A stretch of DNA of 58,767 bases, the filler included, from Dugesia japonica (taxonomy: Eukaryota): the NCBI GenBank assembly GCA_001938525.1. It is 5 parts of 5 records of this genome, joined end to end, with 100 filler letters (N's around TTAATTAATTAA, not from the genome) between each part and the next. Parts side by side here need not be neighbours in the genome. Positions count along the whole stretch, not along the records: positions 49,139 to 58,767 come from MQRL01635368.1; 4 more parts are not named here. One strand, written 5' to 3'. The notes beneath the pieces are model-generated. The model was given only the letters and a program-made list of their open reading frames with translations. It was not told where the DNA came from and did not search any database. The translations under genes and the position numbers were made by a program. Shown here in pieces: positions 21,001 to 58,767 of this stretch; the stretch's first letter is position 1; each line of letters opens with the position of its first letter.

Positions 21001-24000
21001 AATCTCTAAAATAATCAATGGTTACGTCTAACAATTATTCCCACAATAATTATATTGATATAGATATTTATGATGATGAGAATGAAAATGATATTTAAAT
21101 AATAATCATAACAGCAATTATCGTAATTCATAATTTGTTTTAGATTGAGATACGAAAAGAAACCTTTTTCATATAGCAAAGAAGATCAAAAGTAAAAGGA
21201 ACATTAAATTAATAGTAGAACTTGATGAACTTTAATTTCGTAGATTATATTTTGGGTCTGATGTGTCAGAATCGATGGTTTACACTAAAGACAATGTTAA
21301 TGAATTACATTATTTTGCTGTCAGTGGTTATATTACTGATCGCTATTCATTAGTAAACAATTAATAAGTTATAATTTTATTTGGATTATAGATAGTAGGG
21401 TTATGCACTCAGTTATTTGATATTGATGTCTATGGGACACAATATTTAATTAGTTATTGCGGTTATGACTTCTTTCCGAAACCAGGGATTATTCATGAAT
21501 ACACTGGTAGAAATGATGAAACTTATACAATTATTACATATAATGTAGCACCTGCATGCTACTATTATCATTATGATATATCCTGTTGGAGAAAATGCGA
21601 ATCGGTAGAAGGCAGATTTCACTGCGATTCCACTGGGACAGAAATTTGTGAAGGAAGTCAGTATTTGAATAATACTTAGCTTAACGATTTGCATTATTAT
21701 TTTTATTATTATAATTATTATTATTATTAGGTAGATCTTTTAAAAATAATTGATTTTGCAAATCACAACAATTGATTTCACACATATTTATTTTCAAATT
21801 AAAACTGTAATGTTTGTAGAAAAACAATTACAAATAGAAATTAATCATTAATAAAAGTTATTTATCTAAATTTATATTGATTGAAAATATTCCTTTAAAT
21901 CCCCGTTCTTAAGAAACTTAAGAAGGTTTTCCACATTTCTAATTGTTTTCCATTTTCACCTTATACCGAATACCGTCTTTTGTGAATTTTCTCAATTATT
22001 TCATAAAGAGCTTCAAATCAGTTTTGACTTTTATTTCTACCTTAATTAGGACAAATTCTCCTACTTTGAATTCTTTATTAGTAGTATCTTTTGAAATTTA
22101 TTCTTTAATCTTCTCTGAAACTTCCGACTTCTAACATTTTTTTCCACTAAATTTCTTTACAAATACGATCTCATCCAAGCTCTTTCAAGTCATTTTCTGC
22201 TTTTTTGCATTCAATGTAAATTCAATTTCCTGTAAAATGTCTGCCCAATCTGTTTTTTTCTCTCCTAAAGTGTCGCCTTAATTAAATCTCAAATTTTCCT
22301 GAACTGTCTCTCAATTTGTCCGTTTGCATTGTGATAAAAAAGACTCGAAAACCTAAGTCTAATGTTTAGCCTCTGTGCAAACTCTCTCATAATTCTGGAT
22401 TCTAAGTCTTATCCAAAATCTAGTCTTATCTTTCTTAAGCATCCAAATCTAAAATTTCTGATCAAAAAGTGATTTTTGTATTGTTTCCTCTTTTTGTCTA
22501 AGCAATGTTATAAGAACCAGATATTTACTGCATTAGTCTATTATTCCAAGTATACATATTTTTCGTCCACTTGTTCCCCGAATAGCTCACATATATCTTG
22601 CTTAAATTTATATCTTCAGAAATGTTCAATTGTTCTTCTTTGTGAATATGACTTCAAACAAAGTGGTAGCTTATAATCTCTTTGTCTTCTCATTAATTTC
22701 TGTCATCATTATTTTGGTCTTCTGACAAATTTAATAACTACGAACTATCTTCTATATTTGGCTTCACAAATTCTATGCAATATATTTCTTTCTCATATAT
22801 TCGTACACCTTTTCAACTCCTGCATGACATAATAGTTCATGTATTTCTTCTATTGTTTCATGTATTTTGTCATCCGGAATTTTCATTTTCTTGCTTAAAT
22901 TTGTTTACTCAGAAATGTTTAATTGTTATTCTTTTTCCTTTTCAATTATGTTGAGTATTCTCGTTTTAATCTTCCTTTTCTTGGCATCTTCATGTGACAT
23001 TTGACATTGTACACATACCTAGCATCTTGGTCTAGATAATATATCTGCATTAGCATGTTGAATTCCTTTTCTAGTGTCATGTCTTGTCTACTCGGATAAT
23101 TAATCCATATCTGGAATTGTGATTTGATTTGTGTCTTCGTTGTCATCATAAAAGTTAAGGCTTTATAATTTGTTCTAAGAGTAACTCATCTACTGTAAAA
23201 GTTCTAAAAGCAAATTTAAATTTTTTGTATTTTTAAACGAAATCTATTAAAATCAGATTTGTTAAATATTTTAAATCAAATCATTAAAATAACGTGTTAA
23301 ATAAATTTTAAAATTTGTTTTCAGAAAGCCAACTTGAAATTTATAATTTGAATGGAATATAAAATTTTTGCAATTATATTAAATTAATTTATATTAATTT
23401 ATATTAAATTTTATATTATAGTTTTTAAATTTTGATAATTTCTCTGGGATTTGTAAAATTATAAAACTTCCGATTTTCAGCTTAAATATTTTTTATATTA
23501 TTTATTAAAATTTAAAAGAATCTCAATTAATTAAATATTTTTAGAAATGTTGTTATTCTTTTTTGTCGTTTCAAATATATTTTTTTAAATTTGTTTGAAT
23601 AAAAGAAATTTACATTCATAGTTTTGTTTTGTGAATAGATTTTTTGGAAGCTTTTTTTGAATTCGAATCTAGCATTGTGGCAACCGTAAACATCGATGCA
23701 ATCACAAGAGGTTGTTGACACATGAAGAATTATTTATAACACATGAAGAAGGTACAGGAAACAGGAGACAAAACATCGAAAAAGTTACGAAAAGAACTGT
23801 ATCGTCAACTGTATAGAGGAGAAGATTGGAGAGGCCATGAAAAATCTGTATGATTATGGTATCATCCGGAAGTGTAATTCTCAATAGAATAATTTAATAT
23901 TAAATACACTAAAAATAAAATAAAATCAGGAGATTCATTTAATTTTGCCAAATTAATCATATTTGGGTGTCCTAAAAAAGAACATTAAACATTCACATAT

Positions 24001-29482: not shown

Positions 29483-32400
29483 TTTCGTATTTACAGTGAC
29501 GGAAGTGAAAAAGCTCACGGAAGGATCAAAGATCGACATCCAAGCAAAGTGAATTTTTCTGCAGAAAAAGCTAAGGGGTGAGATCATCGATTTACAACAC
29601 AAGAATACTCAACTCCGAGGAAAAGTGGGCATACTAAAAGAGCGAGAACTAGCACTGGCTCAGACATGTCGAGCGATNGCCGACATAATAAAATCCTACG
29701 CCGACAAAGAAACCATGCTGATCGCAACGGTGCATACATTGACACGGGTATCAAAATCAATATCAGATGTTTCTAAGGAGAAAGCTAGCGAGGTGGTCGA
29801 GCTGGACGCGTGATCTATAATAATAATGAACAGTGTTGTATCAAATATCCTTTGCTTTATTGGAACAGTAAAATAAATGTATATTGCTTAGTAAATTCTA
29901 AATGTCGAAAGAATGAGAGCCGGATTGAAAGAAATTGAACCTAAGACGGGATACAGCATAGTCCCGCTGAATCCGGGAAAAGGGGGATCGTGTTGCTGGA
30001 GAGAGTAAAACAAATTTCTGTGGTTGTTAAGTGTCATCCCCTAGACGGAAAAGATAATCAGAGAGAAAGTGATAATGCATGAGAGAAAAATGAAGATCAA
30101 CACAAGTATTAATTAAACAACATCCAAAAGCCTAACAACCCAGCAGATTGGGTAAATAAAATCCAGAAGGTCATCAAAGTAAAAAGTAAAAGTAAACAAC
30201 TGATTTCAACCAGAACAGCGGAACTCATCGGAGCTCTACATAATTTTTCAGCAATGATTAGTCAGGAGTACCAAATGTTATTAGAACAGTTTGTATAAAT
30301 CCAAGGTCAAAGGTTATTAGGTTTAAATCAGAATCATTTAAAATAAAAGTTTTATGGCTTTGCAATAAGAAAAAACTTATCATATCTGGAGATTATCGCT
30401 GGTGTGTTTTAGCGGAATTGATTAGAAATAACAACCAAGAATCAAGAGAACCGTTAGACGGAAAAACGGAAAAATTATATTTCGGTTCTACTCTTATTGA
30501 CAGCAAGTCCACGGACCCAATACAATTAGGGGGACTCTGGAAAATGCTAGAATCAATATAATCGTCCAAATAATGAGACGGACGAAATAACCGACATCTA
30601 AACCGATTAAAGATAAGCATAAGGAAGAAAGGCCTCCGAGCATTAACATTATTTAACAAATAGATAGTATCAAAATGGCAGGAGCCAAAATCGGCAAATA
30701 ATAAGAGAATAAAGTATGGATTGAATATGGAAGAAGTATTTTCGCACATATCCAAAAACCTACTACGAACAGTAACTAAGCAAATACAAGAACTAAGCAA
30801 AATAATTCACAAAGTAAACACAATGCATGAAGAATCAGACGAGAAAACCGTATTAGTAACAAGAATACTAACACTCATAGAACGGGAAAGCTACCAGTAT
30901 GCAAAAGTGCAAGAAATGTGAAAAGAAGGGACATATAAAAAGGAGTTGTTCGGCACTCTTGTGGCGAAAAAGGACACATATGGAAAATATTTAGCAATAA
31001 ACGAAAAAAGGTCTAAGAAAGAAACAACACAAATTCGTCACAGTAAGGAAGGAGAACGGGAAAATGCAGTAACAGACTCCATTAAACTCTGCATGCTACA
31101 GGTGAAAACCGCAGAAACAATAGAACCAGACGACTTCATAGAATTAGTGATAAAGAAGAAAAAGGGAAGAATAGAAGTTGGAGAAATGAAAACTAGAAGC
31201 CAGAAATCGGAAGCAGGGACTCTAAATACACGGGAAGTCGAAATAAATCAAACATATAGCCCAAAACAAGTAAACTATATAACAAGGACGGACTCAAATC
31301 AAGAGTCGGAACTATTGTCAAACAACGATCTTACAGATCGGATGGAAGAACTATTATGGGTATTAACATTACAACTAAAGAAGTTGGAAGAGGAAACTAA
31401 TGCAGTACAAAAAAACTGATAGAAACAATAGTAGAAAATATATTAAAATCAAGGCTATCAAAATTCAAAGAACAGGGGAAAAGAACAAAATTTGCATTAC
31501 AAATGTTGTTAAAAAGTTTAAGTGTAACAGAAAAGTTAATAATAAAAACGACAACACCTAAACAAAGAGAAAATTATGAGTGTAGTGAATGTGGTAAACT
31601 TGGGCATTTTGCAACGTGGTGTTGGAAGAATAGACTTTGTGAATATTTTGGGAATCAGATCACCCAAAGAAACTATGTTGGAAAAAATCATTTAAGTTAT
31701 GTGTTGGTTTAGAACATACAGAAAACCAATATAAAAGAGAATCGGATATCGAACTTATCTTTAAAAAAAGGATGCACGAGATGTGGAAAAAATGACCACA
31801 CGCTAGCCACGTGTGAATTAAAATGCAAAAGATGTAGCCGCAAATGACACACCGAAATAGTAAGCCAACCAGACAAACAATTCACTAAGTGTAGAGGAAG
31901 AGGACATCTAGCAGAACAATGTGACATCCATAGATGTTTCAATTGCGGGAGAACCGGACACACCATTAAAAGGTGCTGATTTAAAGTCAGTAGTGAAGAC
32001 TTAGCCGTAATCATAGAGAGATCGAACAAATTATGTATGCTACAAATAACAAATGAAGAAGAAAAAATGAAATCGTCTGATAGCTTCAAAGAAAATCAAC
32101 TAATGACACGTGTAGAACGAGATAATCCCCAGACAGTACCAGAAGACTGGCAGAAAATATTTAATGCATACAATGAGCGGATATCCAGGTTAGAAGAAGC
32201 ATTACATTTGACCCAGGTACAATGTCAAAATTTCAAATATTTGGAAGATAAAGCGATAGAGGATAAGAGAAATGCACTAGTACTGCAAAATATAGTAATG
32301 ACCAATTTGCAAAAAAGAGTAATCTTCAGTCGAATTAATTGGAAAGAGTATTGATCATTAAGAAAACAACAAACAAGAACCGAAGCAGCAAAAATAGGAA

Positions 32401-32600
32401 CTATTCGTCAAGCAAGGATATGGAAAGCAAAATACGAAGAATTAAACAGAAAAATCAATCAAACAGATCAAGCAGATAAATTAAAGAGGAACATTAAGGA
32501 AAACCAAATAGAAATAAAGAATGAACCATTAGATGAAACAGCCAATTGTGAATAGATTATAAAGATGATGACAGAAGAACAGGGAGAAACCAATGAATAA
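29483..32600 (+). pseudogene. Long decayed gag/ORF1-like region with about 6 CCHC zinc knuckles (31580-31980) flanked by coiled-coil-like segments
   Basis: CSECGKLGHFATWC, CTRCGKNDHTLATC, KCRGRGHLAEQC and CFNCGRTGHTIKRC plus degenerate knuckles; higher GC, A-rich coding-like strand; many frameshifts. Confidence 0.65.
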
Positions 32601-35600
32601 TTGTTAATAGTAATTAAAGGTAAAGAGGCCTTTTACGAATAAATAACAGAATAACAACGGAACTGGAAAGCTGGGTTAGACAAGATTCATCAACAGATCA
32701 CAACTGATCAAATTCAACTACCGGAACTAGATGATAACAAAATCTGGGCCATAATAACACCAACAAAACCCATAGCAAGAATAAGCCATATGATGCGAAA
32801 CCAACAAACCAACGATGATGGACAATGATACAATCCAATCACGCCAAGAAAAACCAACGGACATCGTTACTTACTACCTAGAAAATTAACTGAAACTTTT
32901 GTGTGATTCTTTAAATTAAACTGAATAATAAATTACTTACGAAAATGACATTCATTAGTATTAAAGAATACGAATAAATGTAATGATAAATGTGGTATGT
33001 TGAATATGAAGGCCATTGTACAGTTTAAGTCGTATGATTTGTTGAATGACAAATAACTCTTAGCCACCTAATCTATCTGAATCTTGTGCTCTCTTTAAGA
33101 ACTATAAAAAATGTTATGGCAACAAAAGTGCAATTGCGTATGTTTATTTAAATGTTATTTTAATTGTCTTTTATGTTCTATGACCTGGAAATCAATCGGG
33201 GCGGAAAAGCACATAAGCAACCATCAAAGAGTGAATATGAAAATTAATTCAACAAGAATGCTAAATTCCGGTACGGAATTTTTTTCGAAGAGAGAGTTTT
33301 TTGTTGAGGTGAAACACCGGATTACGGAAAATAAAATGGCTTAAGTAAACGCGAAATTTTAAAAATTGTCATAAGAAACGAAAATGTGGTATTCAGATTG
33401 TTTTTGAAGCAGAAAATAAATTTTTTGTCAAAAAATAAGAAAAATGAAGGTTTTTTCTTGAGTTAAAATTGACAGTTAAACAAATGATGGACAAGAAAAA
33501 ATCGGGGAGTTCAAAAATGCAAAATAAAAAATTGTAACAAGATCCAGAAAGAAGTTATAAGTTCCTGAAGGTTGACCAATAGTACTCCAGTAAATTTGGA
33601 ATTCCAAAATTCTAATCAATAAGAAGAAATCATGTGACAAAATTAAAATAATTGACCAGTAAAAACGCCGAAAATGATGGTTAACCAATGAAAAGGTAGA
33701 GAACGTAGAAGAAACCGGTATAAATACCAAAGCGATTTTCATCAGAAGGAGACAAAAAAAATTTTACCAAGTGTAGCAAATTCAAGCAAATTTACCAAAT
33801 TTATCAAATCCAGCAAATTCGTCAAGTTTAACAAACCAATTTAATCTACCAACTTACTGAAATCCAGATTTCATCGGGAAAAGTTTAGAAGTAAAGAATT
33901 GATCCAAAGGTGGATTTAACGGTAATTTCTTGTTGTTAATTACGCGCAACGATTTTCGGCTCGTAAATGGAAGATTATGGGGGACTTTTGGAATCATTAA
34001 TCGTTACCGCCGATACTCCATTACAATTATTGTGCTTGCTCCGGATCGGGATTCAGGTCATGTTTGTTATATTAATAGTCATATTTATGAAATATGTGTA
34101 ACAAGTAAACTTGGACGTATTTAATATAGTTTACGAGTTCAGTTCTTTTGTCGTCTTAATTAAATTCAATCTAAAATCCTACGTTAATGGTTTTTAAGTT
34201 AAAGTGACATAGAAACGTCTTAAGCATGAGTAAAATCAAAATTAATTTAAGGTCGAATCAACTAAATAAATCTAATAATGGACAAGCTAAAAACTACTAA
34301 GTGAGATTTGATATTGAATCATTAAGAGTCAATTTCGAGTGAGAATCATAAGAATCGAAAATGAATCAAAAGAGTGTTAGTCTGTACTCGAATTCCGAGT
34401 CAACGACTCCATTATGAAGATCTGGAATTTTTGGGATACCAAATTAAATTCTTCGCGGGGTTTTACTAGTACAACCACTCTAGACTTAATTTTTAAACAT
34501 TGTCACACCTAGAGAAAACCCCAACACTATAAATACATGTTTTGAATTAATTTTAATAAAAATTATCAATTAATTGTATTAAAATCTTAAATGTCTTCTT
34601 TGAATTTATCTTTTGTGATAAATGTATTCTTTTCAAATTTCCAAAATTTATGATTCGTATTGTTAGGGTCGTAAGCTAAGCTACATTAATTTATTTAATT
34701 TATTAATTTATATTATAAAATTTCTATTTGTATTTGTTTTAATTTGTCAATTTATTAAATTACTCAAGGTTATTAAATAATAAAAAAAAAATTTNNNNNN
34801 NNNNNNNNNNNNNNNNNNNNNNNGTAAATTTCAATATAAATTTTATTTATTTATTCTAGATTAAGAGAAATTTTGATTTTTAAATTAAGTAAATAAAAAT
34901 TAACATTTCAGGTAATTGTTTTGTTTATTCTAGAATTCTGATAATTAACCGCAAACAAAAAATTTGTATATATACTGATTGTAAAATCAGTTTTTTCAGA
35001 CTTAAAGTTTTAGCTAAATCTTAGCAGTAGAAAGATTTATAAAGTTAAAAGGTAATATTTTTGATTTGTAGAACAAATATAAATCTGTTTAGATTATTAT
35101 TTGTTTCGTTTTAAATCATTTAAATTTTTATTAGATAATNNNNNNNNNNNNNNNNNNNNNNNNNNNNNNNNNNNNNNNNNNNNAAAATCACTTATTAAAA
35201 TACACATCTTGAGTTAACACGTGTGGTGAGGAAATTTAGGCCCACCATTCACAACTTATTTTAACGGTAGTGTAATACCGGTATTTATCCTTCAATTAAA
35301 ATTTATATAGAGCGGTTCTCGCTAAATCCGTAAAATNNNNNNNNNNNNNNNNNNNNNNNNNNNNNNNNNNNNNNNNNNNNNNNNNNNNNNNNNNNNNNNN
35401 NNNNNNNNNNNNNNNNNNNNNNNNNNNNNNNNNNNNNNNNNNNNNNNNNNNNNNNNNNNNNNATATAATTTTTCGAAGTAGAATTTGGAGTTATATTAAA
35501 TAAATATTAAATTGCTATTTCTCCCCACAAGGTCTAACAGTATATACAAATCAAATCTTAAATAATTGTTCAATTTTACAAAGGAAAATGTTACAACACT

Positions 35601-46370: not shown

Positions 46371-49038
46371 AGTAAAAGCATCCAAAGTCGGGAAGATTAA
46401 ATTAATAGCACTGAAAGAAAGAAAGAATTAAACCAAAATAATAAAAAGTAAAAATGATTGTATTGATGCGAGAATTTATGAAAATCTAATGACCATCATA
46501 AATATCATAAAGGGAGGACCCGTGGAATTAAAATGGTACTGTGAATATTGTGTCAATGAAAATTGACAAGCATATCTGGTTTTGAATTAAACGAATACCA
46601 ATACAGAACACGAGGCCCTGACATCCAGGAAAGATTTGATCCAAAACGGGTTACTGCAAAGACCCACTGGATCGGGAGGGGGGAATTAACACGTGTAGTG
46701 CTCAATTCTTGTGACTTCTAAGTTCATTCCTTAGTTACCAAACTGTGAAACAGATAAATGAGAACTGTAATGTCAAATGACATTAGAGAATAAAAATTAA
46801 AAGTCTAGAAGCCCAAAAAATAGTAAATCTTTTTATCATAAGATAAATATTTTTTTCAAAATCTTTAAATTTTCATATGCAATGAATTGCACCTATTATT
46901 TTCAGTTTCATTGCATTACTGTTTTTCTTTTTACATTACCTATAAGGAATTTTGATAGAAAAATGCAGCAATGTTTTAATCGATGATATGATTATTTTAT
47001 ATACAAATTGGAATAAAGTCTATGATAGTTTGAACGTGAAACTGATGCCATCTCGAAGAAGATAAAATCAATCTACAGAATAGATTTCTATTATAATCAT
47101 ATACCGTGCTTTTCAAATAAATTGGATTTCATAGTTATGTGAAATCAGACTTTGCAGAGAATTTTCGCAAACATATAAGGAGAGCCTATTATTTTTGAGG
47201 TTTTACCAAAATTCTGTATATAAATTGTTTCATTTATTTTGTTTAGTTATTTACTGATATTTTCATTTTAAGTCATATTTCATTTTCTTCGTTGTAATGA
47301 TCAAATCATCAATAAATTGTACTAAAATGGATAACTGGTTTAACACTTTAGATATCAATCGAGTTTTACAGCATGCAGTATTTGGCGAGTTTTCTATGTT
47401 TTGGTAAAATATACCTTAGACAGACGTCTAAGTATCAATATGAACTATATGAGGATTGGTTCCTAGCCAAAGAACATATTAAAAGTCAAATAAAAATATT
47501 TTAACAAACTACTGATAAATTAAATGAAGTATTTAAATCAATAAACCACGTTCAGAAATTGTAAATGTAAATATGCTCATTAGAATGCGAGCAAATTGTA
47601 TATGCTTGAAATTCTGAGCTTTGACAAAATCTAAATAAATAAATAAAAAACAAAATCAGTTGATAAAAATTATTTAAAACAAATAATATATTATGGATGC
47701 TCGAAAATTAAAGAAAATTCTGAAAAGAAAAGAGAAGTGGTTGAGAATCAAGATTAGAATTACAAAATAACAAAAAAATTAAAAACAAAATAGCGTTGAC
47801 AGTGTCTATTTCAGCAAATTGTGAAATAATTTCATCTATTTTTAAATTTAATTCAAATTAAAATCTNAACTAAATAATAGGTTAGTCGATATTGAAATAA
47901 ATCTTCTATTACCTACAGAACCATACCATTTGTTGTAAATTAAGATTAAAACCGCTAACTATTCTTGTTATAATACGTATTTATTTAGAAATTATTATAC
48001 AATTTTGATTATGCAATTTCAACGAATTTATTAATATCAATTCAAATTGGATCCTGGAATGGTCGAGTTGAAATATTTAAAAAAATTTTCATATGAATAA
48101 TAAATTTTGATCGGATTGATCGGACATGATTGACATTAGATGAGAAGTAATTATAAGTGCTAATCAAACTTTAATAAATTTTACTAAAAATAATTTCAAT
48201 AATTACTTTAAAGTATTCATATAATATAATTAACAATTATTACAAAGATCACATTACGGATGCACAATAATTGTGAGCTTACTTGGTGAACTAATTAATG
48301 TTTTTCAGGTTCAATTAAAATAATGCTTTTTTAGTGATTCTTTGATTAGCTTCTAATTTTAATTTTCATTTTCTTCTCTAATAAAAACTACAATATATAA
48401 TATATTAAATAATATAATAAATGAGGATTGAGGATCATTTGTAAATATTTTTTAATTTTTTGTGTTGGTAATTTTTTAATTATATGTACAATCGAACCCT
48501 TGTAGTACCACATCAGCTAACATCACGACCTACTTAACATTAAGCTAAAACTAAAAACTAGACACAATATAATTTAACCTGGCTAATGTCACTTCAATTT
48601 ATTTCCATTTTCTTCTTCATATCACGAATAACTTTTTATTTTTTTACTATTACCTACTTTGTACCACGTCTCAATGAATTATGTCATTCCTTGCAAATTT
48701 GTTTCATTTTCACTTCGAATTAAACAAGTTACAAAAAGAAACCAAATAAAATATATTATAAAAAAGAGATTGTTATTTTTGGAAAGTTATTCGTTGTAAT
48801 ATTAAGTTCGTTTGGTAATATAATAGAAAGTGTTGGGTATTACAACTCAACAAAAGATTTTATGGTTCGTATTTACTTAGTGATAAAAATATAATTGAGA
48901 TTTTATGGGTGTTAAGTAGGGGGATAGCGGCACACGGCGCCACTTCGTTTTTAGCAGAACCCCCCCCGGGGGGGGGCTCGGAAACACATTACGCTTGAGC
49001 TGTGTTTTTTTAACTATGATTTTTGTGATGGTTTTTTT

Positions 49039-49138
49039 NNNNNNNNNNNNNNNNNNNNNNNNNNNNNNNNNNNNNNNNNNNNTTAATTAATTAANNNNNN
49101 NNNNNNNNNNNNNNNNNNNNNNNNNNNNNNNNNNNNNN
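49039..49138. other. Artificial assembly spacer
   Basis: 44 N + TTAATTAATTAA (49083-49094) + 44 N. Confidence 0.97.
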
Positions 49139-49192
<54 letters not shown>

Positions 49193-50103
49193 CATTATTA
49201 TAATTATTAATATTATTATTATTATTAATGGCAAACATATTTTTCTCTACATGTATAGAATTCTGCATTATAAAATCATCTTCATCCATTTTGTCTTCTA
49301 CTTGAAAATTGTTCCAATCATTTATATCAGGTTCTGTTGCTGTATTATTTATTTTTTCGTCATCTATGAAATCTTCCTTCCTTTTCTTTATTGCTGGACC
49401 AATTAAATCACTTTCTAATATAGATTTTAATAATGTTTTTATTTACTCTAAATTGTCATATATGGTTTTTATGTGTTCTATAAAAATTTTTATATGACCC
49501 TATTTCTACTGAACTACAAGTCGGGCATAATTAGTACTTTTTCTCATAANNNNNNNNNNNNNNNNNNNNNNNNNNNNNNNNNNNNNNNNNNNNNNNNNNT
49601 TGCTGTATTATTTATTTTTTCGTCAGCTATGAAATCTTCCTTCCTCTTCTTTATTGTTGGACCAATTATACCAATTTTTAATATAGATTTTAATAATGTT
49701 TTTTTATTTACTCTAAATTGTCCTATATGGTTTTTATGTAAAAATTTTTATATGACCCTATTTCTACATAAGTAGTACTTTTTCTCATAAAAACAAATGC
49801 CATAATATTTCTCCATAATAGTATGACAGTCTCCTTTATGTATTGCATTCCCACAATAATATTTGTATAATGAACATTGTTCTAAAATGATAAATACATT
49901 TAATTTTATTACAATATACATGTTAATATAATAATTTAATAAAATAATATTAGGAAAGAATATTATGAAAAGTATATACAAAATTATTAACAAAATAAAA
50001 ACTAACTTTTAACATAATCATTTGTATATCCATCAGAAACATCACATAAAACANNNNNNNNNNNNNNNNNNNNNNNNNNNNNNNNNNNNNNNNNNNNNNN
50101 NNN

Positions 50104-50164
<61 letters not shown>

Positions 50165-50975
50165 GTTATAATTAATAACAAATATATTTTCCTCTCCGTC
50201 TATAGAATTCTGTATTATAAAATCATTTTCATCCATTTTGTCTACTACTTGAAAATTGATCCAATCATTTATATCAGGTTTTGTTGTTGTATTATTTATT
50301 TCTTCATCATGAATGAAATCTTCCTTCGTTTTCTTTATTGCTGGACCAATTATATCACTTTCTAATAAAGATTTTAATAATGTTTTTTTTATTTACTCTA
50401 AATTGTCCTATATGGTTTTTATGTATTCTATAAAAATTTTAATATGACCCTATTTCTACTGAACTACAAATCAGGCATAAGTAGTACTTTTTCTCATAAA
50501 AACAAATGCCATAATATTTCTCCATAATAGTATGACAGTCTCCTTTATGTATTGCATTCCCGCAATAATATTTGTATAATGAACATTGTTCTAAAATGAT
50601 AAATAAATATAATTTATGTACAATATACATGTTAATATTATAATTTAATAAATTAATATTGAAAAAAATATGAAAAATATTTACAAATTGTTAACAAAAT
50701 AAAAACTAACTTTTAACATAATCATTTCTATATCCAACAGGAACGTCACAAACAACATCAACATCATCGCATTTCTGAACTAATAATAATAATTATTAAA
50801 TATTAATAAATTTACAATAATCGAATTATTTCTCTTTACATTGCTTTTTCTTTCATTAGAATTATCATTTACCTAAAATTAGAAATAAATATTATCAAAT
50901 AATAATACATTTACATTAGCCATTGTTATCATATTTACGCAGTTCTTCATTTTCTCCATATTGTTCATATACTAA
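49139..50975 (-). pseudogene. Three tandem, partly truncated copies of a spliced Cys/His-rich (C2H2-like) gene running into (AAT)n
   Basis: Units at about 49210-49550, 49600-50050 and 50165-50975 are near-identical. Short exons with gt/ag give ..KCDDVDVVCDVPVGYRNDYVK|QCSLYKYYCGNAIHKGDCH..CLICSSVEIGSYKIFIEH then an acidic tail; each copy has stops or frameshifts. Confidence 0.55.
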
Positions 50976-51393
50976 ATAAATTATTGATAAATATAAAAAT
51001 AAACAATAAAAAAAACAAACTTACGTACCAAAATTATTCACTTTTAAAAAATAGTTTTATGAAAATTGTGACAAAAGTCATTAAGTAATAGGTTTTATTA
51101 CTGCATTAAGCAACCAATTGTAATGCAGTAAAACTTTAAAATACTGCAACGTAACAATTTCAAAATACCTCAACGTAATATATTGAGTTGTAACAATTTA
51201 TAAAGTCCACAAATTAATATATTTGATAATACCGCAACGTAACATATTAACAATACGATCTTAGTAAAACATGGACTGTAATTGTATGACATTCGTCTTA
51301 CATTTGCATTGCATTATTAGTAATAAAAAACTAATGAAAACCAGATCTTCGATTAAATACATTTATTTTTTATAAATCAACTGCACATAATAT

Positions 51394-51810
51394 TCAACTA
51401 TAATGTTGACTTTTCAACCATAATAAGCAATGTTGTCCGTAGGTTGTTGTAATTGGGTTTTGATAACAAATTCTGTTATATACAATGGGCTTTGATATTC
51501 TTGATAGATGTGATACCAAATTTGATGGATAATAAAATCCGAATGGATCAAATACTAAAATGTCTGTATGTTTATTGTAAACCGCGATCAAATAATCTCC
51601 ACCAAGATTTGATGTATCAGTATTGACAATTAAAGCTTTGTTAACTGCCAAGTATGGTAGTTTGTCAAATGGATATACTCCCAACCACGATGATCCGAAC
51701 AATTTTGATCCAATTTGAATAACCTGAAAAGAACTTATACAGTAAAAAATATTGAAATAAAATAAAAACCTTACTTCATAATTTTGATTATTTGATTTTA
51801 TTAGATAATG
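51394..51810 (-). pseudogene. Maverick/Polinton adenain-like cysteine protease, catalytically dead, with a probable 51-nt intron (51724-51774)
   Basis: WLGVYPFDKLP..IVNTDTSNLGGDYLIAV..FDPFG..YQ..TTTYGQHCL; canonical GxHW is GDYL and CG is YG. Lies directly downstream of the minus-strand MCP stop. Confidence 0.85.
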
Positions 51811-51811
51811 T

Positions 51812-52369
51812 TTACACTAGTACTGTTCTATTACCATTTATTTGGATTTCGCTTTCAAATACTCCATATATTATAACATATGCTGGCGCAGTTAAAGCTT
51901 TAGAAAATTTTATATCCAATATTAAATTTCCTTGTTGAGGCAATTGACTCTGGTTTATATCGAAATCTCGAGAAAGTACAAATGTAAAAAACGGATATTT
52001 GCTTTTAAATTCTTCAAGTATTATTCCACAATTCATATTCTGATCCAAATATCCTATATTTCGAACAACTCTTTGCATATATGTTGTACTATAATCATCG
52101 CTTTCAAAATCTTGGATATATGTCTCTCGATAATCAATGTTTTTCGATAAAGATATGGAAGTAGCATTTTAATGTTGAAATGTTAAAGTAGAGGTTTTAT
52201 AATTACCATTATATTGATCACCATTTTGAAATGCAATTAAAAGAAAGTTGGATAAACGACGATCACCAAATATTTGTTCCTTATAAAATGATGTACTATC
52301 TTTACTAATTGCAAACCTAACAATTTCCTTCTTTCTTAACGGATAAATTGCATTTATCTTATTTAAGCT
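51812..52369 (-). pseudogene. Maverick/Polinton major capsid protein (double jelly-roll), C-terminal half, 5'-truncated
   Basis: NAIYPLRK..QIFGDRRL..YNGNY..FQH and GNLILDIKFSKAL..VIIYGVFESEIQINGNRTVLV*; roughly 90% identical by manual alignment to 55519-55864. Confidence 0.85.
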
Positions 52370-52603
52370 AGACTTCATTGTTAAAAAACAGAATGATTAA
52401 GCAATTCAAACTAAGGCGCTGGAAGCCGAAAACAAGCAGCTGCTGATGAGAAAGATCGATTTTTTAAAGCAGTACATCGCCGATCTTTCTCGTCAAATAG
52501 GCAATCCCACTTGGATTCAGTGGGACGACAACGATGATATTGCTGCTTTTAATTTCTCAGTGATCGATTCCAACCCAATGGTTAGACCCAGGGGTGCTGG
52601 ATT

Positions 52604-53019
52604 TGTTATGAATATTTTATGTATTTATCGAATAAAATGTATATCATTTTTATGTTGTATTTTCTTTCTTTTGTTGATGATATTAGGGAAAACAAAGGTT
52701 TATGGGTGTGTACCTCCCATTAAGAGTGAGGTCAACCGCCATGAACTGAAAACCTACCCTAGGGGCGGTAGGTTAAATTCTTGAACGGGTTCCCCTGAGG
52801 GCTGTTTTTCCCCAGTCACAAACTTTTTCACTCAACTCAGGTGGAACCCCAACAAATATAATAAAATATAAAATTAAATATTTGATTTTTCCGTTTTTGA
52901 TTATAAATTTTTTAATTTGTTTGTTTAATTAACTAATGATGGCATAGTTTTTAAATAAATCGTAATGACTTTGAATTCTGATATTAGTGATTCGATGAGT
53001 TTTCAAAACTTAACTAACA
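52604..53019 (+). mobile_element. Gypsy 5' LTR (416 bp)
   Basis: TGTTA...TAACA termini, immediately followed by a PBS and gag. The 5' boundary is inferred from the terminal inverted match only. Confidence 0.65.
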
Positions 53020-54150
53020 TGGTGGCAGCGGTAAACACCGATGCAATCACAGAAAGATTGTTGCCACAAATATTTTGAAGAGGCGATGATCTAGAGAAGT
53101 TAATCAAACGGTTTGAAATATACTTTAAGGCAAAGAACATATTTGTTTAGAAAGATCAGGACCGTTGGGTAACATGTATGCTTCATGAATATTTAATGGA
53201 AGCATATGTAAAGACATTGAAGAAAGCTGATGGTTATCGAGATAGATTGCTATTAGCTTTAAAGAGCAAATGAGACATGATAAAAGATTAACAGAATCTT
53301 AAAAGCTATCAACGTGGTAATGAAGAAATTGAGGTGTATTTTAAAAAAGTGGAAGATTTGATAGATAGATTTTTAGCAAATGAAGAGCTGGAGAAAGAAA
53401 AACTCTTATCAAAAATGCTAATAATTTGTGAATATAGTAAAAAAGCAGAAAAAAGATTATCATGAAAAAATTTAAGAAAGTAGTAGACATAAAAACAACG
53501 TTATCTTCGGTGGAAATAATAGAAAACAGAGAACCTATTAACGTAGTAAAGAGTTACGCTGGTGTAACATGTGGAGAATGTTTCGGAGAAAGGAGACAAA
53601 ATATTGAGAGAGTTACAAAAAGAACAGAACCACAGTATTGGACATGCCAGAGTTATGGGCATACAAAAAAAGTCCAAAAGTATCCAAAAAATGCTCATGT
53701 GGAATGTTGGACTTGTCACAAAAAAGGACATTTAATTAGAAATTGTCCAGACAAGAAACCATCAAAAGGTTTTATGTGTGGTAAGATTGGTCATGTTAGA
53801 AAGATGTGCACAGAAATTGTATGTGTACGTTGTATGTATGTAAAGAACCGGGTGACAGAGCAAAAGAATGTTATTCGAACATTAATAAACCTAGACTAGA
53901 AGAAGGAAGATACAATTTTAGAAGTGAACAACAAATAAAAGATTGGAGTCGGAAAAAACTAATTCATGCCATTCGAGAAAAATTTGATGATGAGCATGAC
54001 GAGAGATTTTCTGAGAGCATAATAGAAAATGAAGATCCTAGAAGAGAATACCCAAAAGGCAGGGCTCCATCAGTGGAGAAGTTATTCGGAGCCATATATA
54101 GAATCGAAAAAATAATAAAATCGAAAGGAACAAAAAAGAATAAACAATAA
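53019..54150 (+). pseudogene. gag: Ty3/Gypsy gag with about 4 CCHC knuckles, decayed; pol absent
   Basis: MVAAVNTDAITERLLPQIF*RGDDLEKLIKRFEIYF.. with several stops; CWTCHKKGHLIRNC, FMCGKIGHVRKMC and CKEPGDRAKEC. Confidence 0.8.
53020..53032 (+). promoter_or_regulatory. Primer-binding site complementary to the tRNA-Leu 3' end
   Basis: TGGTGGCAGCGGT is the reverse complement of ACCGCUGCCACCA, the 3' end of eukaryotic tRNA-Leu(AAG/UAG); it abuts the LTR-terminal CA. Confidence 0.8.
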
Positions 54151-54343
54151 TGAAATTAAAAAATTTCTATACACCTTTACCTAGTAATAGTTGTCCTCTT
54201 ATTCATCCGAATAATAATGCTAGTAAATTCAATTGTTGAGCTTCAAAATCCGATTTATGGATGGTAGTTGGGAAGTAGCATTGTTGGATTTTACCTTTTT
54301 ATATCAAACATTTTCATTATATAGCAAATCTAAAATTCAATAA
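54150..54343 (+). pseudogene. Maverick minor capsid (penton) N-terminal fragment, LPSN type; not in the ORF track
   Basis: MKLKNFYTPLPSNSCPLIHPNNNASKF /frameshift/ IVELQNPIY /frameshift/ DGSWEVALLDFTF, matching the FYxxLPSN..PxN..F..L..PI.L.G.WEVxL penton start. Confidence 0.8.
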
Positions 54344-54407
54344 ATGACATCGAAAACCATAACGAAAAAAGTGACTATAATAATTAATCATAAAGAAAAG
54401 TTGTTGA

Positions 54408-54710
54408 GTGTCAATCAAAATGATCATGTTGCTATACGCGATAGGACCGTTGAAATCTAATGCATCAGCAGAACTTGGTAATGCAGTGTCTTCGCTACCT
54501 AGTGGAGTAACTGATATGATTCCAATAGTAGCAAACATGTTACCATCTAGTATAATAAATAGGATTCCATCGGAAATAAGTAATATGATAACAAAGCAAC
54601 CGCAAAAAAGTAATAAAAAACTTAAAAAATCAAAAGCAACAGGTATAAACAAACGAATGAGAGGACATGAAACAATTGTTGAAAATGATTTGCAGTATTT
54701 GTATTTTTGA
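54408..54710 (+). pseudogene. Small Maverick protein with basic C-terminal tail upstream of MCP (putative core/DNA-binding protein), partial
   Basis: Position immediately 5' of MCP; amphipathic helical segment followed by KQPQKSNKKLKKSK..KRMR. Confidence 0.45.
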
Positions 54711-55864
54711 TCGTCCTTCACCTCAAGCAGTTATTGAAAATGCTGCATTTGAAGATTTGTTTCCAATGAATTCAATTTCTGATTCAAAAAGCGATGTAGA
54801 ATGTTATATGAATGGATGTCAAACTGAATATTTGGATTTGAATGATAATTTATTGTATATTAAACTTGATAAGGCAGGCAAAGATTTAGTTGAGACTCAT
54901 GATGTAATTCCTAGTAATTATATGTTGCATTCACTTTTTAGGGATGTAATTCTTTTATTTAATAATTACAAAATTGAAGGTGGAAATGGAACATATATTA
55001 AAAAAGTATTGACTGAAACTATATTGAATTATAATGGCGACAGTAAAAATATTTGTCTAGAAGCAATGAGGTGTGGATCAGAAGAAAATAAAAAAGCTTC
55101 TATTAAAAAATCCAAATCATTGTCTCTATGTGGTTCATTGCAACTTGATTTTATGGATCTTATTGTCAATATTCACATTCGATTGAAACGAGCAGAGGCT
55201 AATTCCTGTTTGGAATCTGCAGTAAATCAACCTACATATGTATTGCTAGATGCAAAATTAATGGTTAGAAATGTACGCGTTGAACCGTCAGTATTGGCTG
55301 GTCATCAATTAGGATTAAATAAGAAAAATGCAATTTATCCGATAANNNNNNNNNNNNNNNNNNNNNNNNNNNNNNNNNNNNNNNNNNNNNNNNNNNNNNN
55401 NNNNNNNNNNNNNNNNNNNNNNNNNNNNNNNNNNNNNNNNNNNNNNNNNNNNNNNNNNNNNNNNNNNNNNNNNNNNNNNNNNNNNNNNNNNNNNNNNNNN
55501 NNNNNNNNNNNNNNNNNNCCATATCTTTATCGAAAAACATTGATTATCGAGAGACATATATTCAAGATTTTCAAAACGATGATTATAGTACACCATATAT
55601 GCAAAGTGTTATTCGAAATATGGGATATTTGGATAAGAATATGAATTGTGGAATAACATTTAAAGAATTTAAGCAAATATCCGTTTTTTACAATTGTACT
55701 TTCTCCAGATTTCGATATTAATCAGAGTCAATTGTCTCAACAAGGAAATTTAAGATTGGATATAAAGTTTGCTAAAGCTTTGACTGCGCCAGCATATGTT
55801 ATAATATATGGAGTAATTAAAAGCGAAATCCAAATAAATGCTAATAAAAACCGTACTAGTGTAA
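54667..55864 (+). pseudogene. Maverick/Polinton major capsid protein, near full length, frameshifted
   Basis: IFDRPSPQAVIE..FPMNSI..EYLDLNDNLLYIKL..NYMLHSLFRDV..IHIRLKR..AKLMVRNV..NAIYPI..GNLRLDIKFAKAL..VIIYG; true end is TVLV-TAA at 55862-55864 by comparison with the minus copy. Confidence 0.9.
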
Positions 55865-56300
55865 AGAAAATGAAATTAATTTGTATTATACTGAAAACGA
55901 AGGTAAATCAGTTTTTACTGAAAGATTTATTAGAACTCTAAAAATAAAATGCGGAAATATTTTACATTAACAGGAAATCCAAAATGGAATAATAATTTAT
56001 TACAAAAGATTGTAAATGATTATAAAAACAACTCCAATAGACGCTAGTGAAATTCCTGAAAATATACAAGAAATAATTTAAGATTATAACCATGAAAATG
56101 AATCAATACATTTAAACAGAAATTTAAAATAATATAAATATAAATACAAATAATATAAATACAAATTTGAAAAAAGATTTACAGCTAAAAAGACAAGTGA
56201 AATATTTGTTGAAACAAAAGTATATAAAGCAAAACCATTTACTTATGGAATTAGTGATTTAGAAAATGAAAAAATTTCAGGTAGATTTTATGATAATGAA
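55860..56300 (+). pseudogene. Maverick retroviral-like (c-)integrase, C-terminal half; not in the ORF track
   Basis: CKENEINLYYTENEGKSVFTERFIRTLK /frameshift/ MRKYFTLTGNPKW..LQKIVNDY /frameshift/ TPID.. and KFEKRFTAKKTSEIF..KV..KPFTY.ISDLENEKISGRFYDNE, matching the ERFNRTLK and FEKGYTPNWTxEIF..GxFYxxE motifs. Confidence 0.85.
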
Positions 56301-56591
56301 AGTGAGTTATTAATACCAACTGGTCCCATTAAAACCGATAAACAAATCCAAAGGATTCAAATAAAATGTAAAAAACAAGAATTAGAAAAAAGAAAAAAAC
56401 CAGAAATAGATAAAAGAAAAAAATTAAGAAATCCACCAGAATTTTTTTGGAAGTGGTTATTTATAAGTATTGGTGATAAAAGAATTAAAACCATGAGTGT
56501 TGAAGAAAAAGAAATAATATTAAACTATTTAAAATTTTTAAATTTTGTTAATATGGATCCATTTAGTATGAAAATATTGTTAATAAAATAA
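56301..56591 (+). pseudogene. Unknown K-rich protein segment with FWKWL motif, in frame with the integrase tail
   Basis: Open frame 56154-56591 continues ..KRKKLRNPPEFFWKWLFISIGDKRIKTMSVEEKEIILNYLKFLNFVNMDPFS; paralogous to 57080-57200. Confidence 0.45.
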
Positions 56592-56939
56592 ATAATGAAC
56601 GAAGGAATGGTTCTGCAGATCAAACTGAAATAAAAGAATTCTTTTATGAAAAAATAACTTCTGATTATAAAAAAATAATCCCACAGAACCTGATTGTCCT
56701 CAGCAAGTTTTAGATTATGTTAATAATAAATATAATGATAAAGAAAAGAAGGATAAAGCAATAACAGAAATAAGTAAATTATTAATTTATATTAATGGAA
56801 ATTTTAATGATTATAATTTGGAACCGTTTAGTATATTTGTATTAAATTTTGTAGTATATAATTTTGTTATTGATGGGGATTTTGATCACTTCTGGGAATA
56901 ACAGATTTTTTATAAATTTTAAATTAATAAAAATATAAA

Positions 56940-57374
56940 ATGAGAAAAACACAAAATTCTAAAAACTCTACTGAAAATAATGAAACAATTAAAAAAGAAG
57001 AGCTAACACAAGAAAATAATATTGAAAAAGAAGAGCTAACGCAAGCCGAAGGTGATAAAACCAAAAGGGGCCCACATAAAACATTTTGGAAGTGGTTAAC
57101 TAATGATAATTCTGAATATATGTCAAAAGAGCAAATAGATGAAATTCAATTTTAAAATAACGTAAATTTTATAAATATGGGTATACCAAATTTAGCTCTA
57201 TTAAATATGAGTGTTAGAAAATTAGCTAATGATTATATAATTATTTCAACTGTAAAAGCCGGGCATAATAATTTAGAACAAGAAATTAAATCTGTTTGTA
57301 AATTATTATTAAAACAAGCCCAAGAGGGCCCACTAATTACTCAAGAAAAATATAATGTTTATAAAAATAAATAA
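56940..57374 (+). pseudogene. Single Maverick-associated gene split by one in-frame TAA (57153-57155); FWKWL motif and C-terminal AG[NH]N helical motif
   Basis: ORFs 56940-57155 and 57177-57374 are in the same frame. IISTVKAGHNNLEQEIKSVCKLLLKQ..IT resembles the conserved ..SxxAGNN..EI..I...L...II motif of Maverick small proteins. Confidence 0.55.
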
Positions 57375-57388
57375 TTTACCTAAAGAAA

Positions 57389-58053
57389 ATGTCTCATCAA
57401 TTTTTAGTTNTTGGGAAAAAGTCTGATCCTAAAGTAAATTTAAGATTTCCAATAGAATTAGATTCAGAATATAAAATGGGGTTATTGTGTTTTAGTTTTT
57501 ATAATATTATTTTTAATGTTACTAGTAAAAATAATACTTTCTACTGTAATGATAAATTAATAACTATAGAATCAGGTGCTTATGAAATTAAAGAAATATC
57601 TAATAATTTTTGTCAAAGTATAAAATTGATGTTACAGCAGATCAATCAACAACAAAATGTAATTTAGATATAAAAGAAAATACAATTAAATTTGATGACA
57701 AATCTTTTTTTCATACAATTTTAGGTTTTTTACCTAATCAGTATTCAGTTGGAAAATACTATTCAGAAAAAAAAATTGATATTTTAAATATTAATATGAT
57801 AAATATAACTTGTATTTTAGTTAAAGGTAATTAAATCAATAATTTACAAATGAATTTATTATATTCTTTTCCAGTAAATTCTGTTGGTTTTGGTTTTAAA
57901 ATTATAGAAAGACTTTATCCNNNNNNNNNNNNNNNNNNNNNNNNNNNNNNNNNNNNNNNNNNNNNNNNNNNNNNNNNNNNNNNNNNNNNNNNNNNNATAG
58001 ATTTTAATGGACAAACTATTTCTTTATTAGTTCATATTAGAAAATGTCTTTGA
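57389..58053 (+). pseudogene. Second Maverick minor capsid (penton), PIEL/YN..NV type, near full length, frameshifted
   Basis: FPIELDSEYKMGL..FYNIIFNVTSKNNTF..IESGAYEIKEI..TTKC..ILGF..IDILNINMINITCILVKG..LYSF..GFKIIE..IDFNGQTISLLVHIR. Confidence 0.85.
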
Positions 58054-58208
58054 ATTATACAGTTCTAGACGTTTTAAAAACATTTGGAATAAATACAAAA
58101 ACTCATTTTGATTTGTATTCTATTGCTGATTTTTTAAATTTAGAACTGAAAGTATTAATGAAAAATGAAGTTAAAGATATAGATAATAACACACATACTC
58201 GAATTTGA
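58044..58208 (+). pseudogene. Possible N-terminal fragment of a second Maverick protease overlapping the penton stop
   Basis: MSLNYTVLDVLKTFGINTKTHFDLYSIADFLNLELKVLMKNEVK resembles the xNFDL..A..L.I...VxMRDEL start of Maverick proteases; truncated before the catalytic motifs. Confidence 0.5.
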
Positions 58209-58619
58209 TTGGTTAGATTTGAAACCCTTGGTAAAAATTATTATTCTTCATCACAATTTCAAATTATTTTTAGAAAACCAGTGAACAAATTCAAGAGAGC
58301 TTTAAGTAATTTATTATTATTATTAACATTATTAACTTATTTTTAGAATTATCATGAATTCGTATAAACAAAATGGAAGATTTATTTCAACTATGAATAC
58401 TGTAAGATTAATATTATTTATTATTAATAAATTAATTATGTAATTTAGAATTTCAACGAAATAAGACATGAAGGTGAAGGATCTCGGAGGTTTGTGAATG
58501 GAGAATCACGTGAGTTTTTTTTATTGTTTTTTAATATTTTTTATAAGTTACATTTTATTAATATTTTTTTTAAATTTATTAAATTTTATTAAAATTTTAA
58601 AAAATATTATCAAAAACAG

Positions 58620-58750
58620 ATATTCTATGTCGCGTTCCATGATATGTTCCATGATATGATATTATGAAGACATGATCTATGTTATGAAGAAATGCTCTAT
58701 GTTATGAGGAAAAACTCTATGTTGTTATGAAAAAGAAATTATCTATGTTT
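58620..58750. repeat. Short degenerate tandem repeats (tctatgttatgaagaaa-like, about 19 bp; gttccatgatat x2)
   Basis: Directly visible. Confidence 0.7.
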
Positions 58751-58767
58751 TTTAAATGAAAAAGGTG

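Follow-up and report, generated by a model that had tools for sequence, protein, structure and literature searches.

A probable deletion scar joining fragments of two Maverick capsid lineages

In the 58,767-nucleotide stretch of Dugesia japonica DNA analysed here (the window), the end of a Maverick MCP gene at TGTAAA (55860–55865) abuts the 3′ half of an integrase gene, with no gap between them in the assembly sequence. The meeting of two Maverick lineages, A and B, at this site is supported by penton class, by the similarity and architecture of the integrase, by a step in GC content and by the gene order of relatives. The locus is most likely a fairly ordinary scar and not a working hybrid virus; a deletion across adjacent dead Mavericks of two capsid lineages, in a transposon graveyard, probably accounts for it. 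The term chimeric Maverick, used in the original prediction for this region, overstates the case, as what is present is two broken fragments joined to each other, at a locus that is broken in several other places too, and not an element. The features are listed below with coordinates, strand and basis.

51400–51738, minus: pseudogene of an adenain-like protease, lineage A, following the inverted MCP copy (similarity to the L001 protease)
51812–52366, minus: inverted copy of the MCP 3′ half, lineage A (79% identical to residues 223–406 of P0001; 92% nucleotide identity to the plus copy)
53020–54149, plus: LTR-retrotransposon gag remnant with CCHC zinc knuckles, adjoining the penton start (zf-CCHC, E = 1.7e-6)
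54150–54457, plus: 5′ remnant of an LPSN-class penton (lineage A), frameshifted and truncated (L001/L002 similarity, profile, LPSN and WEVAL motifs)
54408–54710, plus: basic ORF in the PZ position (synteny: before the MCP, as in L001, L002 and L003)
54685–55864, plus: lineage-A MCP pseudogene, putatively double-jelly-roll (MCP relatives; predicted fold of the relative P0001)
55860–55865, plus: junction TGTAAA (identity to the inverted MCP copy stops, integrase homology starts; GC change-point interval 55301–56123)
55860–56330, plus: 3′ half of an rve integrase, lineage B (homology to integrase relatives)
56331–56591, plus: FWKWL-containing segment that continues the integrase frame (29% identity to 56940–57368 over 62 aa)
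56582–56900, plus: ORF pieces (sub-threshold Pfam match to DUF7028 only, E = 0.038)
56940–57371, plus: FWKWL/AGHN ORF with one in-frame stop (ORF call)
57389–58053, plus: PIEL-class penton pseudogene, lineage B (insect-class motifs)
58044–58208, plus: 54-codon ORF overlapping the penton stop, possibly a protease start (position only)

The junction in the assembly

The junction is real in the assembly. It is spanned by an N-free stretch (55519–57409), and a scaffold gap was rejected as its origin, with no N found within 340 nt. The plus MCP copy (55519–55865) is 92% identical (321/349) to the minus copy (52158–51811) and the identity stops at TGTAAA, while the C-half of the integrase opens in frame at about 55860–55863; MCP identity and open integrase frame overlap across 55860–55865. 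The inverted sister copy resolves the A-side breakpoint to the nucleotide, and the B side is judged only from the residues of integrase homologs. The switch had been predicted at this hexamer, a position that both the end of identity and the start of the integrase confirm. However, the accompanying claim that GTG TAA terminates the plus MCP does not hold, as these codons are out of the MCP frame owing to a 1-nt indel near 55847.

Lineage A left of the junction

An LPSN penton start (54150), a basic ORF and an MCP (from 54685) had been predicted on the left, and all three were located. The left genes match those of two Maverick contigs that supply the normal gene order, L001 (pPolB, ATPase, INT, LPSN penton, PZ, MCP, PRO) and L002 (INT, two LPSN penton-like ORFs, PZ, MCP). 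The penton remnant has the LPSN...W.V[AG]L start, exhibits 52%, 44% and 45% identity over 22–25 aa to the L001/L002 pentons, and its pieces match an LPSN-penton profile (E = 1.1e-7 and 0.0012). The basic ORF showed no significant match to the three PZ-position proteins of L001–L003; judging from synteny, it is probably the C-terminal part of PZ, the N-terminal part having been lost in a deletion. The left penton start lies 535 nt from the MCP start, versus 1352 and 1598 nt in L001 and L002, and at least 800 nt (about 800–1000 nt) is missing between penton and PZ, a loss that the original prediction did not mention.

The N-half of the MCP is up to 71% identical to proteins of about 406 aa (36/37 matches among 884 candidates), among them P0001 (71%). 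A PDB sequence search with P0001 returned nothing below E = 0.1; its structural model (pLDDT 86) matches iridovirus, PBCV-1 and virophage capsids, and the MCP family is predicted to fold as a double jelly roll. Identity to the L001 and L002 MCPs is 45% and 37%, and these proteins, at about 45%, are hence distant stand-ins for parent A. The plus gene is damaged by small in-frame deletions and by frameshifts near 55672 and 55847, and it contains an N gap of 173 (55346–55518) that had also gone unmentioned.

The inverted MCP copy is cut on its 5′ side near 52367, carries one in-frame stop and retains the order MCP, PRO. As predicted, its MCP stop is followed by a protease. This adenain-like sequence is 46–48% identical to the L001 protease (E = 4e-24), gives a weak, sub-threshold Pfam match to Peptidase_C5 (E = 0.069) and lacks the His of the G-x-H-W motif found in L001. 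The two MCP copies differ by 25 substitutions, split 11/6/8 over codon positions 1/2/3, a pattern of neutral decay. Amplification fold-back was rejected as the source of the pair, as the copies are 8% diverged.

Lineage B right of the junction

The integrase half and the PIEL penton predicted on the right were both recovered. The window integrase lacks the second catalytic Asp motif and a chromodomain and has in-frame stops; it has 159 relatives at E ≤ 0.001, with rve in 12 of the 13 scanned. It is 24% identical to the L001 integrase and 23% to that of L002, which are 48% identical to each other, and 39–43% identical to P0097, a PLA2–integrase fusion; in 24 diagnostic columns it follows the PLA2-fused group 10 times, L001/L002 twice and neither 12 times, the identities and column counts being biased towards homologs gathered with the window integrase as query. 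The chromodomain-sized tail of L001/L002 is absent, as in 9 of the first 10 end-motif matches. PLA2 is fused N-terminally in 10 of 150 integrase relatives and in neither of the two lineage-A integrases; Pfam gave no PLA2 match in the region. Taken by itself, the integrase tree did not confirm the original claim of two distinct lineages. The AU test did not reject a grouping of the window integrase with L001/L002 (p-AU 0.404), and a 116-row tree places it on a long unresolved branch; in the 35-row tree only, it groups with PLA2-fused integrases (SH-aLRT 93, unstarred). The large tree used 113 of the 150 matches, after 37 that covered fewer than 125 of 149 columns had been dropped, and the small tree used 32.

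The right penton exhibits all four insect-class motifs (PIEL, NN.FY, G.YEI.EI and GFKII) and none of three LPSN-class motifs from the alignment in PMC4028283, supplement S3, the insect-class motifs having been picked from that printed alignment after the window sequence had been seen. It did not match the L001/L002 pentons, the LPSN profile reached at best E = 0.062 on its longer pieces, and a word-index search with its N-part (18 candidates) gave no match. Atlas placed one piece at 0.97 to viral clusters plus DUF5901 (13% of members), with recognition below threshold and thus a lead only. The right penton fits the other published PX class. The expectation in the original prediction that one element normally has one penton needs qualifying, because L002 has two LPSN-type penton-like ORFs, although both are of one class. 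The right penton is frameshifted near 57610 and interrupted by an N gap (57921–57996).

Between integrase and penton, the segment 56331–56591 resembles the N-part of the next FWKWL ORF and had no Pfam match. No homolog of the FWKWL/AGHN ORF was found in Pfam, by word-index search (131 candidates, 0 matches) or in Atlas (nothing usable), and the AGN motif of P0110, considered as the AGHN counterpart, was rejected because it does not align with this ORF. The ORF at 58044–58208, previously read as a different protease start, matched nothing in Pfam and neither the L001 nor the minus-copy protease; its one match among stored proteins (E = 0.04) is to an integrase. A relative of the whole B module was not obtained by the word-index searches with penton and AGHN ORF. 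The treatment of INT, FWKWL/AGHN and PIEL penton as one element rests on continuity and uniform GC, that of the integrase (0.215) being the same as in the right-hand genes.

Base composition and neighbourhood

GC content is 0.28–0.30 left of the junction versus 0.20–0.23 right of it (about 0.29 to 0.22). The best change point falls at 55794 (interval 55301–56123) and was reached by 0 of 1000 block permutations; its LR is 30.8 here versus 7.8 in L001. Directly upstream of the left penton lies the gag remnant, absent from the original prediction, which includes at 53020–53031 a motif that we take to be primer-binding-site-like. Further breakpoints occur within 7 kb, at gag/penton (about 54150), at penton/PZ and at the 5′ cut of the inverted MCP (about 52367), giving the locus at least three besides the junction. 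The region is repeat-rich, with an inverted repeat, and the window holds 41 N runs.

The absence of a visible pPolB, packaging ATPase or TIR had been noted originally and stands: queries with L001 proteins found no pPolB (tblastn, E ≤ 0.5), ATPase or PW in the window, and no TIR was seen, the MCP pair being the sole long inverted repeat in the region and the window ending 560 nt past 58208. Pfam returned only zf-CCHC families on six- and three-frame read-throughs of 50700–58767 (18 frames), only sub-threshold matches on 15 pieces and relatives, and no host gene among 31 ORFs. Nothing was found by Rfam over 47500–58767 or by ARAGORN over the window.

Origin of the junction

We infer that two Mavericks, A with an LPSN penton and a vertebrate/echinoderm-type module and B with a PIEL penton and an insect/cnidarian-type module, would have integrated side by side or one inside the other, where an AT-rich eukaryote genome is rich in transposons. 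The protease and right end of A, together with B up to mid-integrase, would later have been lost in a deletion, which end joining with 0–6 nt of shared sequence would have repaired. The MCP of A would thereby have come to lie, with its last codon, directly against the 3′ half of the B integrase. The fused product does nothing: polymerase, ATPase and termini are absent, half of the integrase is gone, and those genes that have known relatives are damaged by stops, frameshifts or truncations. That the break coincides exactly with the end of a gene counts against this reading, since a random deletion would seldom stop there.

A sub-case of the deletion reading, microhomology-mediated joining through the full TGTAAA, is possible but doubtful. 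MCP identity and integrase frame do overlap over the hexamer, and by an approximation at least 6 nt would be shared by chance at about 0.5% of junctions; among the 107 homologs with a residue at the column, K is the commonest at 55863 (48/107). At 55860, however, C is found in 11/107 and L in 63/107, including P0097, P0110 and P0116. The overlap may be AAA alone, at least 3 nt being expected by chance at about 9% of junctions, and TGTAAA occurs 104 times in the window, counting both strands. The predicted 6-nt microhomology was not confirmed, and the homolog residues allow a shared sequence of 0–6 nt.

An assembly or library chimera of two repeats from different places would suit the fragmented assembly, with its many N runs, and the inverted repeat. 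We regard it as improbable, since the junction lies inside an N-free stretch, the inverted copies are too diverged for fold-back, and usual assembly k-mers are far longer than the overlap, which is at most 6 nt. It is quite unlikely that the integrase belongs to lineage A, as part of a tandem or permuted copy, with the switch further right, after the integrase: the AU result and a GC interval reaching 56123 would allow this, but identity is 23–24% against 48% within the A relatives, the diagnostic columns run 10 to 2, the chromodomain tail is missing and the integrase has the GC of the right-hand genes. A single natural element bearing both penton classes in this order is very improbable. L002 demonstrates that a single element may contain two penton-like genes, but both have LPSN-class starts, and here the integrase is cut mid-gene, the GC content changes stepwise at the junction and the normal MCP–protease order is seen in the inverted copy.

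A hybrid element, formed by recombination of two active lineages and then spread or inserted as a unit, would explain a break exactly at the MCP stop, and Alpha/Beta module exchange is described in the available parts of published work on adintoviruses (10.1101/697771; PMC8502044). It too is quite unlikely here: the junction destroys the integrase by removing the second catalytic Asp motif, the window has no pPolB, ATPase or TIR, and the hybrids described there swap whole modules, never placing two pentons around half an integrase. We also hold it improbable that recombination between Maverick lineages was caught midway here, with one lineage preferentially integrating into or next to the other and the MCP stop serving as a recurrent joining point through which capsid modules are re-associated. 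Were this so, several loci, or related hosts, would carry the junction, and it would provide a nucleotide-level record of the origin of Alpha/Beta mosaics.

Relation to known Mavericks

The LPSN class of PX comprises, in the consulted part of PMC4028283 (supplement S3), Polinton-1/2_XT, -1_CPB, -1/2/3/5_SP and -1/2_CI, and by inference corresponds to the Terrapene-class (Beta) adintovirus virion module of Starrett et al. Features that these Mavericks have in common with the left part and its inverted counterpart are the LPSN...W.VAL start, a short basic gene, a double-jelly-roll MCP, an adenain-like protease and the L001 order. In contrast to them, only fragments are present here: the penton is cut, the MCP frameshifted, and ATPase, PW, an integrase of its own, pPolB and TIR are missing. 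The insect/cnidarian class in that supplement includes Polinton-3/4/6_NVi, -2_TC and -4_NV and would correspond to the Mayetiola-class (Alpha), PLA2-bearing module. The right part shares its penton motifs and an integrase with PLA2 fusions among its best relatives, but has half an integrase, no chromodomain and two homolog-less FWKWL-type segments, with no MCP of that class in the window.

Mosaic polintons are well documented. Like Alpha/Beta mosaic adintoviruses and pPolB-swapped nematode Polintons (10.1101/2023.08.22.554363), the window carries, on one continuous DNA, genes that come from two polinton lineages; the published mosaics are coherent elements in which the polymerase or a whole virion module is swapped, whereas this is a non-functional capsid-module junction running through a gene. 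The mechanism proposed here, tandem integration followed by deletion, has also been put forward, as accretion and deletion, for tandemly integrated, degraded polisuviruses in the accessible part of a 2026 preprint (10.64898/2026.10.13.758929), in which neighbouring integrated elements are joined by internal deletion. That part deals with replicase turnover and with polinton/PLV cases in tandem; in the window the partners are two Maverick capsid lineages and their fusion is dead, a small fossil that fits the same route.

The locus shows the arrival of two Maverick capsid lineages in one host region, and both likely colonised this host; several polinton lineages in one host lineage are already in print, in the part consulted of PMC11131425. 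A single dead junction in a transposon graveyard changes little, and it would carry more weight if it were multi-copy or if co-integration of the two lineages were non-random. On the practical side, such junctions can yield false two-penton or hybrid entries in element libraries.

Divergence of two inverted MCP copies at the junction

The locus occupies the final 8 kb of the window, surrounded by transposon remnants, in an AT-rich, eukaryote-like scaffold of ~25% GC with 41 N runs. It contains two inverted MCP copies, which were aligned over the following segments:

55519-55865, plus strand: plus copy of MCP
52158-51811, minus strand: minus copy of MCP
55315-55345 (plus) and 52366-52336 (minus): additional 31-nt match, beyond a 173-N gap
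55860-55865: TGTAAA, the junction

The two copies are 92% identical (321/349), and the identity stops at TGTAAA. The original prediction placed the MCP end at this motif, followed in the minus copy by the protease. The sister-copy alignment bears this out: TGTAAA ends MCP in the minus copy, where intact relatives terminate in R-T-[IV]-L-[VILM]-stop, and beyond it lies an adenain-like protease with 46-48% identity to the protease of L001, a Maverick-like locus. In the plus copy, by contrast, the integrase frame follows TGTAAA directly. Compared with the minus copy, the plus MCP has one 2-nt and one 1-nt indel, which put its terminal GTG TAA out of frame. The interval spanning the junction, 55519-57409, is free of N, which rules out a scaffolding join as its source. 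The 25 substitutions between the copies fall 11, 6 and 8 on codon positions 1, 2 and 3, and the absence of a third-position excess fits the expectation of neutral decay.

The left module

A search with the N-terminal half of MCP gave 37 hits among 884 candidates, 36 of which are unnamed proteins of 392-416 aa with 38-71% identity. The predicted model of the best relative (pLDDT 86) matches double-jelly-roll capsids in PDB and BFVD. When the MCP alignment was used to scan contigs from bacterial genomes, 64 pattern matches came down to three loci (L001, L002 and L003), which lie, apparently mis-binned, within bacterial MAG records and are evidently eukaryotic-virus contigs. L001 (136-11215) looks near complete, with the order pPolB(-), ATPase, 121-aa ORF, INT, LPSN penton, 105-aa ORF, MCP, PRO, the gene names being assigned from motifs; its terminal ORFs are putatively TBP-like (150 aa) and exonuclease-like (159 aa), also by motif. 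In L002 the order is INT, two LPSN-type penton-like ORFs, 125-aa ORF, MCP; the tandem penton-like ORFs (1520-2353 and 2750-3907), both with LPSN-class starts, lie between INT and the pre-MCP gene. In L003, an MCP piece is fused to a putative bacterial oxidoreductase-like sequence, which suggests a chimeric contig.

The left penton start of the window matches all three L001/L002 pentons at 44-52% over 22-25 aa. It lies 535 nt from the MCP start, compared with 1352 and 1598 nt in L001/L002, and at least 800 nt have therefore been deleted from the left module. The basic ORF of the window occupies the PZ position and has no significant sequence match to PZ-position proteins.

A probable second lineage to the right of the junction

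GC content is 0.28-0.30 in every piece of the LPSN-penton lineage, on both strands, and 0.20-0.23 in every right-hand piece. The best single change point is at 55794 (interval 55301-56123), with a likelihood ratio of 30.8, a value that none of 1000 block permutations reached; applied to the intact L001 INT-PRO region, the test gave 7.8. The GC step is evidence for two lineages that is independent of sequence homology.

The right penton, with ~200 readable codons, nevertheless shows no match to LPSN pentons: the best E value of this piece against an LPSN-penton profile is 0.062, versus 1.1e-7 for the left piece. The printed PX alignment in PMC4028283 (suppl. S3) holds two motif classes, distinguished by eye: LPSN...W.V[AG]L...PLL in Ciona, sea urchin, Xenopus and turtle, and P[IL][ED]L...NN.F...G.Y[EQ]I.DI...G[YF]KI in Nasonia, Tribolium and Nematostella P-4. 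With motifs picked after the window sequence had been seen, the left piece carries two of three class-1 motifs (the missing one belongs to the deleted stretch) and no class-2 motif, and the right penton all four class-2 motifs and none of class 1. Starrett et al. (10.1101/697771; PMC8502044) describe PLA2 as typical of the Mayetiola class, and we infer that the LPSN class corresponds to the Terrapene (Beta) module and the second class to the Mayetiola (Alpha) module.

A search with the integrase half gave 159 relatives at E<=0.001. Among 13 scanned, rve was found in 12 and an N-terminal PLA2-like domain in 5 (the PLA2-like fusions are P0097, P0099, P0112, P0113 and P0129); a local PLA2 profile was positive in 10 of 150 relatives and in neither L001 nor L002. 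Two further relatives bear other fusions, P0114 a protease-like N terminus (weak match) and P0110 an AGN-motif segment. The window integrase is 24% identical to L001, 23% to L002 and 39% to P0097, against benchmarks of 48% between the L001 and L002 integrases and of 45% and 37% between the window MCP and theirs. At 24 diagnostic columns it sides with the PLA2-fused group in 10, with L001/L002 in 2 and with neither in 12. A chromodomain-sized tail such as L001/L002 possess is absent from it; the same holds for 9 of the first 10 end-motif hits and for 60 of 121 in all. The identity, column and tail comparisons are all biased because homologs were gathered with the window as query. As lineage evidence the integrase trees are weak: with 116 rows the window sits on a long branch without resolved placement, with 35 rows it groups with PLA2-fused integrases (SH-aLRT 93), and an AU test did not reject joining the window integrase to L001/L002 (p 0.404).

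Homologs were sought for the FWKWL/AGHN ORF and for the 54-codon ORF at 58044, and none were found. The observations behind the original prediction are largely real; its protease label for the 58044 ORF is tentative. The FWKWL segments at 56370-56560 and 57010-57180 are 29% similar over 62 aa, and the former shares the integrase reading frame and occupies the place of the L001/L002 tail.

Origin of the junction

Searches of the window with L001 queries found no pPolB, ATPase or PW, and no TIR was seen, in agreement with the original prediction that pPolB, ATPase and TIR are not visible. A gag remnant (zinc knuckles, PBS-like motif) adjoins the left penton start, and the inverted MCP is truncated near 52367; with the left-module deletion counted as well, the junction has at least three other breakpoints beside it within 7 kb. 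Positions 52401-52784, which separate the gag remnant from the inverted MCP, hold a 127-codon ORF without a Pfam match.

We consider it likely that adjacent or nested elements of two lineages were joined by deletion. Elements of the LPSN-penton and PIEL-penton lineages would have lain side by side or one within the other, a deletion from the end of the former's MCP to the middle of the latter's integrase would have joined them, and the product would be inert. Among the alternatives, an assembly chimera is improbable, and a hybrid that propagated as such and a lineage switch located after rather than before the integrase are marginally more so. A natural element with both penton classes is the most improbable of all.

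The original prediction of a microhomology-mediated fusion of two lineages is probably right as to the lineages; its mechanism is only a possibility. The breakpoint on the MCP side is 55865. Of 150 homologs, 107 have a residue at this place; these show C at 55860 in 11 cases and L in 63, and K at 55863 in 48. The shared overlap can accordingly be anything from 0 to 6 nt, and by a rough calculation chance overlaps of at least 3 nt occur in 9% of junctions and of at least 6 nt in 0.5%.

Published work already describes Alpha/Beta module exchange (10.1101/697771; PMC8502044), polymerase swaps among Polintons (10.1101/2023.08.22.554363), phylogenetically distinct polintoviruses in a single coral lineage (PMC11131425) and retention of two gene modules by vertebrate Mavericks (PMC8097293). 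Mosaicism through tandem integration and deletion is proposed in 10.64898/2026.10.13.758929, a mechanism that the present locus illustrates. Broad literature searches listed no paper describing a join of one penton class to the other. The locus is a dead junction within a transposon graveyard, probably produced by a mechanism itself previously proposed, and its significance would be greater only if the junction were multi-copy or co-integration non-random.

Other repeats and spacers in the window

49083-49094: TTAATTAATTAA, flanked by two 44-N runs and likely to be an artificial scaffold spacer; comparable 44N+12+44N runs occur at 16007, 29383 and 38815
49157-50757: ~950-nt tandem segment, partly triplicated (84-91% identity), broken by N gaps and ATT repeats
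23669-23797, 21400-23500 (minus strand) and 30262-33000: further LTR-retrotransposon remnants, taken as such from stretches that match the gag region at 53014-53625 over short lengths, a weak gag match at 30664-30918 (E 0.0094) and minus-strand sequence that looks pol-like, recognised solely by eye
775-867, 9392-9484, 13613-13705 and 20985-21077: four copies of a dispersed 93-nt repeat

An 81-nt repeat family lies immediately upstream of three of the four 93-nt copies, and the 93-nt family is possibly a small non-autonomous element.
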